Source of the DNA: Escherichia coli
Lineage (GTDB): Bacteria; Pseudomonadota; Gammaproteobacteria; Enterobacterales; Enterobacteriaceae
Strand: one strand, 5' to 3'
DNA: 64,000 bases
NCBI RefSeq assembly: GCF_030384885.1
Contig: NZ_CP128613.1
Shown: one piece after another, positions 9,636-29,965 of the stretch
Layout of the letters: every line of letters starts with the position of its first letter
Position numbering within the stretch: position 1 is the stretch's first letter
Notes under the pieces: model-generated
What the model was told of the DNA's origin: nothing
What the model saw: only the letters and a program-made list of their open reading frames with translations
Databases searched by the model: none
Made by a program: the position numbers and the translations under genes

Positions 9636-10855
9636 AAATACTGGTCTACGGCATTAACTACTCGCCGGAGTTAACCGGCATCGGCAAATACACCGGCGAG
9701 ATGGTGGAATGGCTGGCAGCACAAGGTCATGAGGTGCGGGTAATTACCGCACCGCCTTACTACCCGCAGTGGCAGGTGGGCGAGAAATATTCCGCCTGGC
9801 GGTACAAACGAGAAGAGGGGGCCGCTACGGTGTGGCGCTGCCCGCTGTATGTGCCAAAACAGCCGAGCACCCTGAAACGCCTGTTGCATCTCGGCAGTTT
9901 TGCCGTCAGCAGTTTTTTCCCGTTGATGGCGCAACGTCGCTGGAAGCCGGATCGCATTATCGGCGTAGTACCAACGCTGTTTTGCACGCCGGGAATGCGC
10001 CTGCTGGCGAAACTCTCTGGTGCGCGTACTGTGCTGCATATTCAGGATTACGAAGTGGATGCCATGCTGGGGCTGGGCCTTGCCGGAAAAGGTAAAGCCG
10101 GCAAAGTGGCACAGCTGGCGACAGCCTTCGAACGTAGCGGACTGCATAACGTCGATAACGTCTCCACGATTTCGCGTTCGATGATGAATAAAGCTGTCGA
10201 AAAAGGTGTGGCGGCGGAAAACGTCATCTTCTTCCCCAACTGGTCGGAAATTGCTCGTTTTCAGCATGTCGCAGACGCCGATGTTGCTGCCCTTCGTAAC
10301 CAACTTGGCCTGCCGGATAACAAAAAAATCATTCTTTACTCCGGCAATATTGGTGAAAAGCAGGGGCTGGAAAACGTTATTGAAGCTGCCGATCGCCTGC
10401 GCGATGAACCGCTGATTTTTGCCATTGTCGGGCAGGGCGGCGGCAAAGCGCGGCTGGAAAAAATGGCGCAGCAGCGCGGACTGCGCAATATGCAATTTTT
10501 CCCGCTGCAATCGTATGACGCTTTACCCGCACTGCTGAAGATGGGCGATTGCCATCTGGTGGTGCAAAAACGCGGTGCGGCAGATGCCGTATTGCCGTCG
10601 AAACTGACCAATATTCTGGCGGTAGGCGGTAACGCGGTGATTACCGCAGAAGCCCACACAGAACTGTGGCAGCTTTGCGAAACCTTTCCGGGCATTGCGG
10701 TTTGCGTAGAACCGGAATCGGTCGAGGCGCTGGTGGAGGGGATTCGTCAGGCGCTCCTGCTGCCCAAACACAACACGGTGGCACGTGAATATGCCGAACG
10801 CACGCTCGATAAAGAGAACGTGTTACGTCAATTTATACATGATATTCGGGGATAA
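9632..10855 (+). CDS. wcaI: Colanic acid glycosyltransferase WcaI (GT4), 407 aa
   Basis: Size and synteny. Confidence 0.85.
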
Positions 10856-12395: not shown

Positions 12396-13766
12396 ATGAA
12401 AAAATTAACCTGCTTTAAAGCCTATGATATTCGCGGAAAATTAGGCGAAGAACTGAATGAAGATATCGCCTGGCGTATTGGGCGTGCTTATGGCGAATTT
12501 CTCAAACCGAAAACCATTGTGTTAGGCGGTGACGTCCGTCTCACCAGCGAAACCTTAAAACTGGCGCTGGCAAAAGGGTTACAGGATGCGGGCGTTGACG
12601 TGCTGGATATCGGCATGTCCGGCACCGAAGAGATCTATTTCGCCACGTTCCATCTCGGCGTGGATGGCGGCATCGAAGTTACCGCCAGCCATAATCCGAT
12701 GGATTACAACGGCATGAAACTGGTGCGCGAAGGGGCTCGCCCGATCAGCGGTGATACCGGACTGCGCGACGTCCAGCGTCTGGCAGAAGCCAACGATTTT
12801 CCTCCCGTCGATGAAACCAAACGCGGTCGCTATCAGCAAATCAACCTGCGCGACGCTTACGTTGATCATCTGTTCGGTTATATCAACGTCAAAAACCTTA
12901 CGCCGCTCAAGCTGGTGATCAACTCCGGGAACGGTGCGGCGGGTCCGGTGGTGGACGCCATCGAAGCCCGCTTTAAAGCCCTCGGCGCACCCGTGGAATT
13001 GATCAAAGTACACAACACGCCGGACGGCAATTTCCCCAACGGTATTCCTAATCCATTGCTGCCGGAATGCCGCGACGATACCCGCAATGCGGTCATTAAA
13101 CACGGCGCGGATATGGGTATTGCCTTTGATGGCGATTTTGACCGCTGTTTCCTGTTTGACGAAAAAGGACAGTTTATCGAGGGCTACTACATTGTCGGCC
13201 TGCTGGCAGAAGCGTTCCTCGAAAAAAATCCCGGCGCGAAGATCATCCACGATCCACGTCTTTCCTGGAACACCGTTGATGTAGTGACTGCCGCAGGCGG
13301 CACCCCGGTGATGTCAAAAACCGGACACGCCTTTATTAAAGAACGTATGCGCAAGGAAGACGCCATCTATGGTGGCGAAATGAGCGCCCACCATTACTTC
13401 CGTGATTTCGCTTACTGCGACAGCGGCATGATCCCGTGGCTGCTGGTCGCCGAACTGGTGTGCATGAAAGGGAAAACGCTGGGCGAACTGGTGCGCGACC
13501 GCATGGCGGCATTCCCGGCAAGCGGTGAGATCAACAGCAAACTGGCGCACCCCGGTGAGGCGATTAATCGCGTCGAACAGCATTTTAGCCGCGAGGCGCT
13601 GGCGGTGGATCGCACCGATGGTATCAGCATGACCTTTGCCGACTGGCGCTTTAACCTGCGCTCCTCCAACACCGAACCGGTGGTACGCCTGAATGTGGAA
13701 TCGCGCGGTGATGTGCCGCTGATGGAAGCGCGAACGCGAACTCTGCTGACGTTGCTGAACGAGTAA
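12396..13766 (+). CDS. cpsG: Phosphomannomutase (colanic acid copy), 456 aa
   Basis: Canonical phosphohexomutase loops TASHNP, DGDFDR, GEMSAH; start set to [14 protein letters not shown] at 12396. Confidence 0.95.
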
Positions 13767-22130: not shown

Positions 22131-23135
22131 ATGAAAGTAATTGTAAATAATTTTTTTGATGGTATTTTGAAAAGAGGAATACCGATCTATACTTCTGAAC
22201 TTGTGCAAAAGTTAAGAGACAATAATGTTCAGGTTATTTATGTTGCATGTCCAAAAGCATTCCATAAGCTGCCTTCATGGTTTCTGAATGTTCTTTTTAT
22301 AATAGTAGAGCAGCTTTTAATACCAATTATGGGTATATTTTATAGAACTAAGTATAATATATATCCCTATAATAGTAGTTCCATCATTGACTTGTTATTA
22401 GGTAAGGCAATTGTTATAATTCATGACTTCATTAGTCTTAAGAAAAATAAACGAAACCTTGCTGCCATTTATGTGAAAGTCTGTATTTATTTTTCATCTT
22501 TTTTAGCAAAGAAAGTAATATTTATTTCTCAAAGCACTCAGCGAGTATCTAAGAGAATATCGCTATTTAAGCGTATAGAATCTATCCTGCTCCCAAATCC
22601 ATTTTTCTCATTTGAGAAAATTGCTAATGTTACCGAAATAAAAGATCTTGGATATTTACTTCTAGTTTCAGGTTTAGGGGATAATAAGGATCTAGGCACA
22701 GCTCTGGACTATTATTTTTCAATCCCAAGGGAAGAAAGAATACCATTAAAAATATTAGGTTGTGGGAATGGTATTAGCAAGGTTAACGACTTAATTGATG
22801 GGCGGGATACAGATAAAGAAATTGAAATTATTGGTTTTGTTTCTTTAGAGGAAGTCGTCAAACTATATTGTAATTCTAAAATTGTTTGGGCTCATTCGCT
22901 TGCCGAGGGGTATGGCAGGACTTTAGCTGAAGCAAAACTCACATGCAAAAATGTTATATGCACACGGATCTCTGCTTTCCGCGAACAAAAGGATTCGAAT
23001 ATTTTCTTTTATACTTACTATTCTGAGTATTATGAAGTCTATTCATACTTGGTAGATAATTCACCCAGTGTCGAAAGGAAAGCTCTGCATGAACATATTT
23101 TATTTGAAAATGAATTGAGAAAGATTTATGAGTAA
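22131..23135 (+). CDS. O-antigen glycosyltransferase, GT4-like (likely mannosyltransferase), ~334 aa
   Basis: Low-GC ORF; C-terminal E-x7-E-type motif (AHSLAEGYGRTLAEAK); start set to MKVIVNN at 22131 with RBS aagag. Confidence 0.6.
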   Translation: MKVIVNNFFDGILKRGIPIYTSELVQKLRDNNVQVIYVACPKAFHKLPSWFLNVLFIIVEQLLIPIMGIFYRTKYNIYPYNSSSIIDLLLGKAIVIIHDFISLKKNKRNLAAIYVKVCIYFSSFLAKKVIFISQSTQRVSKRISLFKRIESILLPNPFFSFEKIANVTEIKDLGYLLLVSGLGDNKDLGTALDYYFSIPREERIPLKILGCGNGISKVNDLIDGRDTDKEIEIIGFVSLEEVVKLYCNSKIVWAHSLAEGYGRTLAEAKLTCKNVICTRISAFREQKDSNIFFYTYYSEYYEVYSYLVDNSPSVERKALHEHILFENELRKIYE

Positions 23136-24330
23136 TATTGATATAAATAAGAAACAGATATTAGTTTTGACTCCACGGTTCCCATTTCCTGTCATTGGTG
23201 GGGATCGATTACGTATCTATAAGATCTGTAAAGAACTGTCTAAGCATTATGATCTTACGTTGCTGAGTCTGTGTGATAAACGCGAAGAGCTCAACTATGA
23301 ATATGATCGTGAAGTTTTTAGTAGTGTTCACAGAGTATATCTTTCAAAGAAAAAATCTGTTTTAAATGTCATATTCTCTTTGTTTTCAAATACACCCCTA
23401 CAGATTGGGTATTATAAATCTAAAGAATTTGAAGATAAACTTAAGCAGTTATTACCTGAACATTCTGCAACTCTTTCACATTTGATAAGGGTTGGTGATT
23501 ATGTGAAAGAGAATAAAGATATAAATTTTTTAGAGATGACCGATGCCATTTCACTTAATTATAAACGAGTAAAGGAAAAAGCATCTTTATTGAGTTTAAA
23601 AACATTTGTATATTCTTTTGAACAAAAAAGACTCGAACGATATGAGCGAACTATAAATAACAAGTTCAGCTTGACTACTTTGGTATCACAGGTTGACTCC
23701 GATTATTTATATCCAGAGCGTCCGAATAATGTATTAGTTTGTGGAAATGGTGTTGATGCCGTTAGCTTACCTTTTTCAGAACGAAAAATAGCTAAAGATA
23801 AAAAGATAACCCTTGTATTTATAGGTAATTTATATTCTTTGCAAAATATGGATGGTGTGAGATGGTTCACCAAGGAAGTTTTACCATTTCTGAACAAGCA
23901 TGGTAATTTTGAATTTAAGGTCATCGGACGTATTACAGATAAAGATAAGAGTTGGTTAGAAAGCCAGCCTGGCGTTGTTGTCACAGGTGAAGTTGATAGC
24001 ATAACTTATGCAGCAGCTGATGGGCATATTGGTGTGTGTCCTATTAGATTAGGGGCAGGTATCCAAAATAAGGTACTTGAATATATGGCGTTGGGATTAC
24101 CTTGTATATCTTCTACTGTAGGCTTTGAAGGCTTGGGAGCAGAGGAGGGTAAGGAGATTTATGTTGCCAATACAAAAGAAGAATATTTACGTGTATTAAA
24201 TTATTTTATAACAAATCTGGATAAATATACCGAAACAGCATTAGTTGCGAAAAAGTTTATCGATGAGAATTTTTCATGGGAAGCTAAATTGAGCCCATAT
24301 ATCCAGAAAATTAAGGAGTCTGTTAAATAA
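23128..24330 (+). CDS. O-antigen glycosyltransferase, GT4 family, 400 aa
   Basis: GT4 signature region [43 protein letters not shown]; 8-nt overlap with upstream GT. Confidence 0.7.
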
Positions 24331-24331
24331 A

Positions 24332-25747
24332 ATGATTATCCCAATTATTATGGCCGGTGGTTCTGGGACTCGCTTATGGCCTCTTTCGCGTTCGTTATAC
24401 CCGAAACAATTTTTATCATTGACTAATGAAAATAGTTTGCTCCAGGAAACGTTGAAGCGACTTGATGGATTAAATTGTTTGCCTCCTGTCATTGTTAGCA
24501 ATAATGAGCATAGATTTATTGTTGCTGAACAATTGCGACAGTTCGGTGTGGATGACTTCCAGATTATTCTAGAACCTGTAGGTAGAAATACTGCGCCCGC
24601 CGTTGCGCTGGCTGCTCTAAAGGCTCTGGAACTCCATGGCGATCATCATATGCTGGTTCTTGCTGCTGACCATGCTATTCAGGATATTGAAGCCTTCCAT
24701 GCAGCTGTTTTAGCTGCAGAACAAGAGTCCGTTGACAATAAGTTAGTGACTTTTGGCATCGTCCCGACCAAACCTGAAACTGGGTATGGCTATATTAAAA
24801 AGGGCGAACAAGTTAAAAACTCCGTATTTAAAGTAAATTCTTTCGTCGAAAAACCTGATTTAGAAACGGCTAAAAATTATCTCGAACAAAAATGCTATTT
24901 GTGGAATAGTGGTATGTTCATGTTCAAGGCGAGCGTATATTTAGATGAATTGAAAAAATTTCGCCCTGATATTTTAGCAGCGTGTAAAGAGTCGCTTTCC
25001 AGTGCTAGTACTGATCTAGATTTTATCAGATTAAATTCTGATGTCTTTGCAGAATGTCCCGATGAGTCAATTGATTATGCGGTAATGGAAAAAACTCAGG
25101 ATTGTGTAGTTATTCCACTTGATGCTGACTGGAGTGACATCGGATCATGGACATCACTTTGGGAAATATCAGAGAAAGATGAACATGAAAACGTATCGCA
25201 TGGTGATGTAATTAACTATAACAGCAGGAACAACTACATTTACTCTGAAGGTTCACTGATCAGCACTGTTGGAGTTAATAACCTTATTATAGTTCAAACT
25301 AAAGATGCGCTCCTGGTAGCACAGCAAGACAACGTACAAGACATAAAGAAAATTGTCGAAATTCTTAAAAAACAAAAACGTAGCGAACATATATCCCATC
25401 GCGAAGTCTATCGTCCTTGGGGACGTTATGATTCTGTAGAACGTGGCGACCGTTATCAGGTAAAACGTATTACCGTTAAGCCTGGTGAATGTCTCTCAAC
25501 ACAAATGCATCATCATCGAGCTGAGCATTGGGTGGTTGTCGCTGGTACTGCAAAGGTGACTTGCGGCGAACGCACTTATTTCGTCACTGAAAATGAGTCA
25601 ACTTTCATACCAATTGGCACAGTTCATACCTTGGAAAATCCAGGAAAGATACCATTAGAAGTAATTGAGATTCAGTCGGGTGTATATCTAGGTGATGATG
25701 ATATTGTGCGCCTAAGTGATAAATATGGTCGTGTTGAGGATAAATAA
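24332..25747 (+). CDS. manC: Mannose-1-phosphate guanylyltransferase (O-antigen copy), 471 aa
   Basis: [16 protein letters not shown] motif and cupin C-terminus; paralog of cpsB in this window but low GC. Confidence 0.9.
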
Positions 25748-25751
25748 TTAT

Positions 25752-27173
25752 ATGAATATTACCAATGATGTAATTAAAAATAGCGGAATTGCATTTGGTA
25801 CAAGTGGTGCTCGTGGATTAGTGAAAGATTTTACACCCAACGTGTGTGCTGCATTCACTTATGCTTTTATCGATGTAATGATGAAGGATTTTTCTTTTAA
25901 AGAGGTTGCGCTCGCAATAGATAATCGCCCAAGCAGCTATGCTATGGCACAAGCTTGCGCAGCAGCATTGTTGGAATGTAGTATTAAACCTATTTACTAC
26001 GGTGTAATTCCAACTCCAGCTTTGGCAAATCAAGCGATTGCCGATGGGATTCCTGCAATAATGGTTACTGGAAGTCATATTCCATTTGATAGAAATGGTT
26101 TGAAATTCTATCGTCCAGACGGGGAAATTTCAAAAGAAAATGAGAACAGCATTATACATGCTGAAAAAGAATATCCTGATGTAACTGTATTGCCAGAATT
26201 ACAATGTTCAAAGCGTGCCGCTGATACTTATATCGAGAGAAACACTTCAATTTTTTCAAATATATTTAAAGGTAAACGTATCGGGATTTATGAACATTCA
26301 AGTGCGGGACGGGATCTTTATCCAGAAATATTCAGTAAGCTTGGTGCTGAAGTTGTAAGTATTGGTAGAAGTGATGAGTTTGTGCCTATTGATACTGAAG
26401 CAGTATCAAAAGAAGATGAAGAAAAAGCTTTACACTGGTCATCTGAGTATGACCTCGATATGATTTTTTCTACCGATGGTGATGGCGATCGTCCTTTGGT
26501 TGCTGACGAAAATGGCGTTTGGTTACGGGGTGATATATTAGGACTATTTTGCTCAAAGGCAATGAATATTGAAGCGGTAGCTGTACCTGTAAGTTGTAAT
26601 ACGGTTATTCAGACCTGCGGGTGGTTTAATCATGTAACGCTGACTAAAATTGGTTCACCATACGTCATTTCAGCGTTTGATTCTCTGAATAATAGTTTTG
26701 ATAGTGTTGCAGGGTTTGAGGCTAACGGTGGGTATCTTTTAGGTAGCGATGTAAATTATAACAGCGGTATGATTAAAGCGCTTCCAACAAGAGATGCTGT
26801 TTTGCCTGCTTTAATGGTACTGGCACTGGCTATAAAAAATAATGTGACTATTTCAAAACTTTTGGCGGAGTTGCCACCACGATTTACCTATTCAAATAGA
26901 GTTCAAAATTTTGCAACAAGCAAAAGCAAAAGCATTATCGCGTCAGCTCAAGAAAATCCTCAAGAATTTATCGAAAGAATAGGCTTTGTCGACCTTCATG
27001 TACAATCGGTGGATACAATTGACGGGTTAAGATTGACACTAAGTGATGGTTCAATAATCCATTTGCGACCGTCAGGCAACGCACCTGAATTGCGATGCTA
27101 TGCAGAAGCAGATAACATAATAAAAGCTGAGAAATTAGTGTTAGAAATTTTGCATAAAGTTACTCTTTTGTAA
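25752..27173 (+). CDS. manB: Phosphomannomutase-like alpha-D-phosphohexomutase (O-antigen copy), ~473 aa, divergent from cpsG
   Basis: Phosphohexomutase loops present but atypical: TGSHIP (phosphoserine loop), DGDGDR (metal), GFEANGG (sugar), RPSGNAPE (phosphate); start set to MNITNDV at 25752. Confidence 0.75.
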
Positions 27174-27356
27174 AAAAATATAAACTTTTTTCTACTCTTG
27201 AGCGGTTTGTCATTGAACCGCTCAGTAATAGATTATTTTTAACTTGTTTATATTTAGCATTGGTGTTTTTATTTGCGTTCATCCCGAATAAGAGATTGTA
27301 AAATTAACTGTTTCTTGTTTTTCAAATGAGTTACTTCACTAGCAAAGCTAATTACT

Positions 27357-28688
27357 ATGCATAAGCAATATTATTCATTATTGTGCAATAAAATACAGTT
27401 TAAACATCTGGCTATATATTTTTCTGTATTTCTTTCACTATCCTCATGTTTCTTGTGGGGAGGGGCGGATACATTTGTATCGCAAGTGTATATTGATATT
27501 TTAGCCACTATATCTACAGCTCTATTAGTTATTTTGATGTTCTATTATTATATTAATAGAGTTCGCTATTTATCACTAACCTTACTTTTTGCATTCGTTT
27601 TTTCTTTGATTATTGGTTTGCCATCGATTTATCTTTACTATTTTAAAAACGCAAATCATGGGTTTGAAATAATTTGTATCTGGGGGATGTTGATCAATTC
27701 CATCCTTTACTTGCAAACAACAGAGACTGTCATAAAAGAAGAAAAAAGATATTTAACTAGTTTATTTTATATTTTGTTTTCTATTGTTGCACTGTGTCAA
27801 TTATGCAAAATATTAATTTATCTTATGTTTATATTGAATTCAGGAGAAGGGCATTTAGCAATTTATACTGAAAGCGAAGAATTGCTATCCCAAGTTCCAT
27901 TTTTTATTCGTGCTATTAGTGGTTTTGCAGTTGTAATGTCATTGTCCACTTTTTATTTTAAAACACCGACCTACATTAAAGTTATTGCATTTATTTTACT
28001 TGCATCTGATTTAGCTATTGGAATACGTAATAAGTTTTTCTTTTCAGTGATTTGTATTTTTATACTATATATGTACTCTAATGAGTATAGAGTAAGGAAT
28101 TTATTTAAGCAGCTCTCAAAACCAATATTTCTCATCGCGGGTTTTTTATGCTTCTCGATGGTATCGTATTTCCGTGAAGGGTACCAAATCGATTTTATGA
28201 ATTATATTGGCATTGTTTTAGATTCGCTATCCTCTACTCTTGGGGGGATGCAGAATTTGTTTGATATGCAATCATCAGGATGGGATCAACTTCATCCCGC
28301 TGTGGTATTCACACAAGTATTACCGCTAAGCGGTCTTGGTTTTCTTGATGATCAACAAATCGCAAAAGATTTTTCAATAATTGTTTTAGGTGATGTATCC
28401 TCTGGTATTGCGTTGTCATCTTCAGGATTGTTAGAGTCATCGTTGCTGAGTCTAAATTTGGGAGTGATTATTTATTTACTGTATTTATCAGGGGTGATGC
28501 TATTTATTAAATGGGGACTAAATAATCAACGGATAATAATAAACTTTGTTGCCATCTCCATGATATCTGGATTTTTTTATGCTGTTCGTGGTGAACTGAT
28601 TTTGCCATTGGCTTTTCTTCTAAAATCATTGCCGATTGTTCTTATATCTCCATTACTTGTTAAAAATAAAATTTATCATGGTCAGTAA
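27357..28688 (+). CDS. wzy: Putative O-antigen polymerase Wzy (polytopic membrane protein), 443 aa
   Basis: Very hydrophobic, low-GC, poor RBS, lies next to wzx in the O-antigen cluster; assignment by elimination. Confidence 0.55.
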   Translation: MHKQYYSLLCNKIQFKHLAIYFSVFLSLSSCFLWGGADTFVSQVYIDILATISTALLVILMFYYYINRVRYLSLTLLFAFVFSLIIGLPSIYLYYFKNANHGFEIICIWGMLINSILYLQTTETVIKEEKRYLTSLFYILFSIVALCQLCKILIYLMFILNSGEGHLAIYTESEELLSQVPFFIRAISGFAVVMSLSTFYFKTPTYIKVIAFILLASDLAIGIRNKFFFSVICIFILYMYSNEYRVRNLFKQLSKPIFLIAGFLCFSMVSYFREGYQIDFMNYIGIVLDSLSSTLGGMQNLFDMQSSGWDQLHPAVVFTQVLPLSGLGFLDDQQIAKDFSIIVLGDVSSGIALSSSGLLESSLLSLNLGVIIYLLYLSGVMLFIKWGLNNQRIIINFVAISMISGFFYAVRGELILPLAFLLKSLPIVLISPLLVKNKIYHGQ

Positions 28689-28729: not shown

Positions 28730-29965
28730 ATGATCAAAGAAATTTTCTCCGATGGCATTTTTTCGCTATTTAATAAAATATGTTACTTCGGTTTTAAAAC
28801 ACTTGCAATAATTCTGATTACTCGTTCCTTAGGAGAAGATGTAGGCGGAGAGTTCATTTTTTTAGTTGGTTTTCTCGAAGTCCTTCGGGTGGTTACTGAT
28901 TTTGGTGTGGATCTGTTTGTTATAAAAAAATATAATGATTCTACAGATAAAATAAAACTATTAAATGTAACGTTTGCACAAAAAATTCTTTCTGGAGTAA
29001 TTGTTTCACTACTGTTTTGTTTGTATTCTTTTGTTCATGGTTATCAATATAATGTCTATATTCCTATTGTGTTAGCCTTACCTGTTGCTTTATTTTTTAA
29101 TTTCTCAAATAGCTATTTTCAATCTCTCAATTCCAATAAATCCCTCACGTTTCCGATCGCAATTGCATCTATTGCAACGTGTACGATCTTCGCTATTCAG
29201 TATTTTTTAAACGTTAAATTTAACGCATGGGATTACCTGTGTGTTGAACTATTATTCGTATCGCTGGTTACACTAAAACTATTCGTTAGTGTCAAGTTTA
29301 GGTTTATTAGAACGTCAGCTTTTGATGTGCTAATGTCAATTCTTTCTTTATATAAATATACATTAAGTATAGGTCTTACAGCTGTTGTTGTAATTATTTA
29401 TAGCCGTGTAGATAATTTTTATCTCAAGACATTTGCCCCAGGGGATCTTGCAGCATATGGCCAGATATTTAGGATGGTTGATCCACTGGTTATGGTTTCT
29501 TCTGTATTTTCTACAGTTGCCTATGCAAGATTTTGCCGAATTAACTTACAAGAAAAAAATGCTTTTACTAAGGTGTTTCAGTTCCTGTTATGTATTGTGG
29601 CATATGGCGTGCTGAGTTCATTAGTTTATTTCTTTATAATAAAATACCTGGGTCATTTTGTGTTGATTTCTAATGTTAATAATGATTTCTTGATAATGAT
29701 GTTCTTGATTGTTGCATGTGTGAAATGTATCAATGGTGGTACAACTGCAATAATTCAGTCACAGGGGTTTTATAAAGTGGGTTTGTATGTTTCGTATGTT
29801 TGCATTTTGACATCGATACCAACTATGTATTTCTTAATAATGAAGTACGGTGTTAAAGGTGCTGCTATGACGATTCTGCTTGTAGAGTGTATTAGTTTCA
29901 TATTACTTCTCTGCAGCTTTTTTATGATAAAAAAGATGCGTCCTAAAAAAACATTCGAAATGTAA
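28730..29965 (+). CDS. wzx: Putative O-antigen flippase Wzx, 411 aa
   Basis: N-terminal region LAIILITRSLGEDVGGEFIFLVG...DFGVDLFVIKK parallels the wzxC N-terminus (LARIIDNHQFGLLTV...DFGIANSIIQRK); about 12 hydrophobic segments. Confidence 0.65.
   Translation: MIKEIFSDGIFSLFNKICYFGFKTLAIILITRSLGEDVGGEFIFLVGFLEVLRVVTDFGVDLFVIKKYNDSTDKIKLLNVTFAQKILSGVIVSLLFCLYSFVHGYQYNVYIPIVLALPVALFFNFSNSYFQSLNSNKSLTFPIAIASIATCTIFAIQYFLNVKFNAWDYLCVELLFVSLVTLKLFVSVKFRFIRTSAFDVLMSILSLYKYTLSIGLTAVVVIIYSRVDNFYLKTFAPGDLAAYGQIFRMVDPLVMVSSVFSTVAYARFCRINLQEKNAFTKVFQFLLCIVAYGVLSSLVYFFIIKYLGHFVLISNVNNDFLIMMFLIVACVKCINGGTTAIIQSQGFYKVGLYVSYVCILTSIPTMYFLIMKYGVKGAAMTILLVECISFILLLCSFFMIKKMRPKKTFEM

Follow-up and report, generated by a model that had tools for sequence, protein, structure and literature searches.

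The O-antigen gene cluster of this Escherichia coli genome includes a manB gene whose predicted active-site loops differ from those encoded by cpsG, the phosphomannomutase gene located among the colanic-acid genes of the same window (the whole stretch of 64,000 nucleotides that was analyzed). This arrangement raises two questions. Do the loops mark the O-antigen enzyme as an aberrant phosphohexomutase, and which sugar phosphate does it convert? RefSeq annotation of the window gives the order colanic-acid genes (cpsB and cpsG included), galF, two glycosyltransferase genes, manC, manB, wzy, wzx, gnd, ugd, wzzB and the his operon. The individual features on which our answers depend are as follows.

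12396..13766, plus strand: cpsG, colanic-acid phosphomannomutase and a paralogue of the PMM/PGM type (RefSeq; 1053.7 bits with the NCBIfam CpsG model, cut-off 801)
[quoted passage not shown]
22131-23135 and 23128-24330, plus strand: two O-antigen glycosyltransferase genes (RefSeq), reported as GDP-mannose users
24332..25747, plus strand: manC, mannose-1-phosphate guanylyltransferase / mannose-6-phosphate isomerase, with its stop codon 4 nucleotides before the manB ATG
25752..27173, plus strand: manB of the O17/O44/O73/O77/O106 O-antigen cluster, ATG start, 473 amino acids, no internal stop
26067..26084, plus strand: phosphoserine loop TGSHIP of manB (residues 106-111), with predicted catalytic Ser108
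26475..26492, plus strand: predicted metal-binding loop DGDGDR (residues 242-247), with Asp242, Asp244 and Asp246
26712..26732, plus strand: predicted sugar-binding loop GFEANGG (residues 321-327), with Glu323 and Asn325
27066..27089, plus strand: predicted phosphate-binding loop RPSGNAPE (residues 439-446), with Arg439, Ser441 and Asn443, followed by Arg448
27357-28688, plus strand: wzy, 'O17/O44/O73/O77/O106 family' (RefSeq)
28730-29965, plus strand: wzx, 'O17/O44/O73/O77/O106 family' (RefSeq)

The manB reading frame is an exact match to the RefSeq coding sequence WP_001027883.1, annotated as 'phosphomannomutase' (E. coli 2013C-4282; 100%). A GTG codon at position 25716 was considered as an alternative start and rejected, as it would overlap manC by 32 nucleotides and is disfavored by the approximately 8-14 residues that precede FGTSG in homologs; RefSeq likewise begins the gene at the ATG at 25752. 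All four loop motifs picked out in the earlier note on this DNA are present at the positions listed above. In a multiple alignment they pair with the loops of CpsG, GlmM, Pgm, the archaeal protein 1WQA and the Brucella protein 4HJH, and they follow the pattern of the superfamily at large, namely T-x-S-H-x-P, D-x-D-x-D-R, a sugar loop that contains Glu, and R-x-S-G/N.

The cpsG product carries TASHNP (12681-12698), DGDFDR (13128-13145), GEMSAH (13374-13391) and RSSNTEP (13659-13679), the motifs that had been described before. The two proteins are only 24% identical by BLASTP (E 2e-10), and the earlier claim that manB has no N-terminus alignable with cpsG is accurate for such a pairwise comparison, wherein the alignment begins at residue 50/39. 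It does not hold when profiles are used. Pfam domain PGM_PMM_I spans residues 14-136 in manB and 7-130 in cpsG, and the FGTSGARG sequence of manB pairs with FKAYDIRG of cpsG in the multiple alignment, and therefore the manB N-terminus can be aligned by profile.

Assignment of manB to a family was approached with the profile search and the phylogeny that the earlier note had proposed. All four PGM_PMM domains are found in manB in the expected order and above their gathering cut-offs (PF02878, 79.4 bits; PF02879, 45.7; PF02880, 33.4; PF00408, 27.8). No NCBIfam equivalog model reaches its cut-off for this protein. The best match is the archaeal GlmM model TIGR03990, with 173.6 bits versus a cut-off of 439, and the scores are 112.5 versus 447.55 for GlmM (TIGR01455), 61.5 versus 618 for PMM/PGM (NF007088) and 22.2 versus 801 for CpsG (NF011943). 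These values are so far under the cut-offs that manB does not belong to either the CpsG or the GlmM type of enzyme.

Searching 1.84 billion cluster representatives exhaustively, we recovered a manB-like family of 572 clusters at E<=1e-30. To assess conservation, we aligned the query manB with 126 full-length proteins, each representing a 50%-identity cluster (n=127). In manB numbering, T106, S108, N115, D246, G326 and G327 are kept in all 127 sequences, while H109, D242, D244, E323, N325, R439 and S441 are kept in 126. N443 and P445 are present in 124 sequences, and I110 and A444 in 120. The resulting subfamily signature, TGSHIP / G[FY]EANGG / RxSGNAPE[LF]R, is carried by manB itself. Retention of the catalytic serine and of the metal loop, as the earlier note had proposed, is borne out both by the loop alignment and by this pattern of conservation. 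Four proteins (P0142, P0193, P0231 and P0240) contain a full ManB-type region within chains of 824, 1021, 1109 and 4372 amino acids, and these may be fusions or gene-calling artefacts.

In a neighbor-joining tree built on Poisson distances, the query manB, 4HJH and the family representatives form one clade in 200/200 bootstraps, with E. coli CpsG, GlmM and Pgm and archaeal 1WQA on the outside. Identity is 27-75% inside the family and 16-28% to the outgroups. The Conserved Domain Database (CDD) lists a ManB subfamily, cd03088 (Table 1, PMC9426568), which we infer to be the clade that holds 4HJH. The view that manB belongs to a phosphohexomutase lineage other than that of cpsG was correct, given the separate clade and the low identity. 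The description of its loops as non-canonical was not, since these loops are nearly invariant across a large subfamily with a solved structure. The 'divergent, non-canonical' reading is the product of comparing manB to cpsG alone. We conclude that manB is typical of its lineage, a large, named ManB group of already known type, and that the finding is ordinary because the odd-looking loops are the normal signature of this lineage. A full-text literature search with the loop strings TGSHIP, GFEANGG and SGNAPE returned no relevant paper.

The closest solved structure to manB is 4HJH from Brucella melitensis, which is 40% identical over 458 residues (E 9e-96 and 4e-105) and has the loops TGSHIP, DGDADRP and GFEANGG plus a phosphate loop of the R[AP]SGNAPELR type. 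A family profile built from 37 members scores 4HJH at 583 bits, 1WQA at 163, GlmM structures at about 140 and AlgC-type structures at about 91. Likewise, an AlphaFold2 model of manB (pLDDT 95.6) superimposes on 4HJH with a TM score of 0.90, compared with 0.7-0.78 for archaeal, GlmM and AlgC structures. The site residues published for 4HJH are 104/242/244/246 for the metal, and 322/324/326 and 436/438/439/440/445 for the substrate (PMC7762576). When counted on the 4HJH sequence, the metal list corresponds to the catalytic Ser and three Asp residues, the first substrate group falls within FEANGG (E, N and G), and the second falls on the phosphate loop (R, S, G, N and the R that trails it). Every one of these residues is conserved in E. 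coli manB.

The naming of 4HJH is inconsistent in this unpublished entry, which is titled phosphoglucomutase and has Phosphomannomutase as its molecule name. One paper terms 4HJH a 'paralog' of BMEII0899 (PMC7762576). In our hands 4HJH fits BMEII0899 itself, as judged by the matching numbering of Gly103 and Ile130 and by its context on chromosome II adjacent to manC.

Membership in the ManB lineage leads to the question of substrate, and here the gene cluster is informative. The O17, O44, O73, O77 and O106 antigens share the backbone ->6)-Man-(a1->2)-Man-(a1->2)-Man-(b1->3)-GlcNAc-(a1->, their gene clusters are >99% identical to one another, and one transferase of the group has been proposed to add two mannoses (PMC7685785). 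With an O unit of Man3-GlcNAc, the cluster needs no dedicated precursor other than GDP-mannose, and manC and manB would be the genes that provide it. Together with the family assignment, this makes it very probable that manB encodes a ManB-type phosphomannomutase that feeds ManC.

Our data demonstrate the family, the fold, the conserved residues, the genomic context and the purifying selection on manB, whereas the mannose preference and the individual steps of catalysis are inferred. The catalytic cycle that we propose is taken from the superfamily. ManB would convert mannose-6-phosphate to mannose-1-phosphate, from which the ManC protein encoded immediately upstream would make GDP-mannose, the source of the three mannoses in each O unit. 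Phospho-Ser108 in TGSHIP is expected to give its phosphate to the sugar phosphate to form a mannose-1,6-bisphosphate intermediate, which would then reorient and hand its other phosphate back to Ser108. During this process, Mg2+ would be held by Asp242, Asp244 and Asp246, the sugar hydroxyls would be bound by Glu323 and Asn325 of GFEANGG, and the distal phosphate would be bound by Arg439, Ser441, Asn443 and Arg448. The low-GC manC-manB pair would thereby constitute the O-antigen operon's own supply of GDP-mannose, apart from the colanic-acid cpsB/cpsG pair, although mannose-1-phosphate might in principle also come from the cpsG product of this genome.

Genetic data from Brucella point in the same direction. 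The 4HJH protein falls in a 90%-identity cluster of 477-amino-acid proteins from Brucella chromosome II, one member of which is encoded immediately upstream of a bifunctional manC. This context fits the published description of manBcore, which lies on chromosome II next to manC (PMC1435926). The LPS of manBcore mutants of B. melitensis is deep-rough and, by NMR, lacks the mannose residue and its branch (PMC4817197). The earlier note had held that the loops of manB would be unremarkable if homologs with the same loops had demonstrated phosphomannomutase activity. Such a homolog exists at the level of in vivo function in Brucella manBcore, whereas our literature search found no assay with purified enzyme, and no kinetics for any member of the subfamily.

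We also considered the genes that accompany manB homologs in other bacteria. A scan of one genome per species yielded 80 loci with 43-66% identity to manB, from Vibrio, Shewanella, Pseudoalteromonas, Photorhabdus, Enterobacter, Halomonas, Thauera, Sphingomonads, Anaeromyxobacter and others. Of these 80 loci, 38 have a manC homolog within 8 kb, and in approximately 31 the two genes are immediate neighbors with the same orientation. A strict count of GDP-mannose genes (manC, or gmd/fcl at least 50% identical) gives 43 of 80. About half of the loci of more distant family members have no GDP-mannose gene within 8 kb. For ten distant loci that lack manC, a Pfam scan of the neighbors revealed no consistent alternative pathway (GSCFA, phosphoesterases, Ugd-like, GT1 and UvrC proteins were seen), and we regard the mixed contexts of such distant members as uninformative rather than contradictory.

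Several individual cases were encountered in these searches. Vreelandella aquamarina strain 558 has two ManB-type copies on different contigs (53% and 51% identity), one adjacent to manC and the other with manC 6.4 kb away on the opposite strand. Deletion and complementation of manB in V. cholerae O1 (PMC4870250) was set aside as evidence, because the V. cholerae family member (P0278; 48% identity, at a locus without adjacent gmd/per) could not be tied to the O1 gene. In E. coli, manB homologs of 60-80% nucleotide identity occur in another 239 genomes, and all are annotated as phosphomannomutase. At two O loci that were inspected (one of the O141 family, one untyped), a homolog of 60-67% nucleotide identity directly follows manC, and the O141 homolog retains the loops of manB. 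Two of the 332 E. coli matches, at 60-80% nucleotide identity, are on records classed as plasmids (for example, H29, NZ_JBSAOW010000005.1, 52 kb).

Might manB instead be chiefly a phosphoglucomutase (PGM), or a bifunctional PMM/PGM that mainly supplies glucose-1-phosphate? Many alpha-D-phosphohexomutases, including AlgC and archaeal 1WQA, use both mannose and glucose phosphates. Some database entries name members of the family phosphoglucomutase. The 4HJH entry bears this name in its title and was crystallized with glucose-6-phosphate, which makes a PGM side activity plausible for manB. As the principal role, however, glucose-1-phosphate supply is improbable. A dedicated Pgm exists in E. coli, and the partner conserved across species is manC, often with gmd and fcl, and not galU or galF. 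Moreover, the Brucella mutant phenotype is a loss of mannose (PMC4817197), and the O77-group cluster makes a Man3-GlcNAc unit, the glucose side branches of related serogroups being attributed to gtr genes located elsewhere (PMC7685785). The earlier judgment that the substrate is uncertain from sequence therefore stands insofar as a PGM side activity is plausible, but the uncertainty has been much reduced by gene context and by manBcore genetics.

The proposal that manB is an amino-sugar phosphate mutase, similar to GlmM or to acetylglucosamine-phosphate mutase, fares worse, and we consider it very unlikely. Its appeal derives from the two GlmM models being the top NCBIfam matches, from a few database records that call family members phosphoglucosamine mutase, and from the FEANG-like sugar loop of eukaryotic acetylglucosamine-phosphate mutases. 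Yet both of these models score far under their cut-offs, and the family clade is separate from E. coli GlmM in every one of the 200 bootstraps. In addition, UDP-GlcNAc supply is a housekeeping function whose glmM gene resides elsewhere, adjoining folP, and the conserved neighbor of manB is manC.

The ManB-type phosphomannomutase that we favor is most likely an active enzyme, as the earlier note had presumed, judging from the intact frame, the full complement of catalytic residues and the substitution pattern of the gene. Of 5426 complete E. coli genomes, 93 (strain 042 among them) have a gene at least 95% identical to manB, and in 90 genomes the identity is at least 99%. The dN/dS ratio is 0.14 relative to E. 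coli 042 and 0.05 relative to the Salmonella orthologue (for which dS is saturated), values that indicate strong purifying selection. It is accordingly hard to credit that manB is a decaying or redundant copy without function merely because cpsG, a second phosphomannomutase gene 12 kb upstream in the window, already provides this activity, when its frame and catalytic residues are intact, its sequence is so uniform and so constrained among genomes, and the manC-manB pair has been kept in the counterpart cluster of Salmonella.

A more speculative proposal concerns the breadth of substrates used by the lineage. The subfamily differs from its relatives in having Ile for the usual Asn in TGSHIP, and Asn for the usual Ser in FEANGG. 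We entertain, with considerable doubt, the idea that ManB-type enzymes are strictly mannose-specific, and that these fixed loops set specificity or activation in a manner unlike that of the bifunctional AlgC and CpsG enzymes. The E. coli protein could then be used as the first member of the subfamily to be modeled biochemically, which would address a gap in characterization and not a new kind of system. This widespread subfamily includes genes required for smooth LPS in Brucella and for the O antigens of O77-group STEC, yet apparently has no published kinetics. Beyond annotation hygiene the significance of our findings is small, and RefSeq already uses the name phosphomannomutase.

Other characteristics of the cluster bear on its history and expression. 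The G+C content is 0.56/0.55 for cpsB/cpsG, 0.40/0.38 for manC/manB and 0.32-0.34 for the glycosyltransferase genes, wzy and wzx, and these steps suggest that the manCB module and the serogroup-specific genes may have had different histories. The ops motif lies where one would be expected in a JUMPstart/RfaH-dependent operon, and it probably has this role. The GGCGGTAG sequence has a second copy at 10618-10625 inside wcaI, and the 8-mer alone occurs at chance level in the window. Finally, the spacer between manB and wzy can form an RNA hairpin (27191-27232) that begins about 20 nucleotides past the manB stop codon, with a perfect 12-bp core and a minimum free energy of -23.7 kcal/mol (z -5.9 versus shuffled sequences). 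This hairpin did not match the intrinsic terminator consensus when tested against it, and its role may be to stabilize the mRNA or to mark a module boundary. The homologous cluster of Salmonella has a hairpin in the corresponding position, though with another sequence (locus L006, 9448-9486).

This Salmonella enterica cluster is among the known systems to which the E. coli locus can be compared. Its manB product is 75% identical in amino acid sequence to that of E. coli and has the same loops, and the gene order GT-GT-manC-manB-wzy-wzx-gnd is kept. The O antigens of the E. coli O77 group and of Salmonella have been linked by a common backbone in a review. The dS value of approximately 3 between the two genes is saturated, and therefore the two genes either split long ago or were acquired separately. 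In Salmonella, wzx and gnd are separated by small ORFs related to IS elements (DUF4096, DDE_3; L006 12359-13944), whereas none lie there in the E. coli window.

Brucella 4HJH shares with manB its four-domain fold and its loops, and both genes are adjacent to manC. Brucella, however, has manB ahead of manC in a stand-alone locus that serves the LPS core and the perosamine O chain, whereas in the E. coli window manC precedes manB and both belong to a Wzx/Wzy O-antigen operon. The archaeal PMM/PGM enzymes 1WQA (Pyrococcus horikoshii) and 9DU5 (Thermococcus) are the next-best matches in structure and sequence, with TM scores of 0.74-0.77. Their sugar loop, GGEENGG, has the E-x-N-G-G pattern in common with GFEANGG of manB, but they are only about 24% identical, their other loops include TASHNP and RASGTEP, and they branch outside the clade of the family.

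Lastly, PMM/PGM enzymes of the CpsG/AlgC type (CDD cd03089) share with manB the superfamily, the four domains and presumably the reaction, but they are just 19-24% identical and occupy a separate clade. The TASHNP, GEMSAH and RSSNTEP loops of CpsG stand opposite TGSHIP, GFEANGG and RPSGNAPE in manB. AlgC-type enzymes, whose motif is TGSHNP (PMC9537760), resemble manB in having Gly before the catalytic Ser. E. coli O-antigen clusters thus hold two manB lineages that seem unrelated at first sight, one of the cpsG-like PMM/PGM type and one of the low-GC ManB type, and therefore divergence from cpsG should not be read as a loss or change of function.
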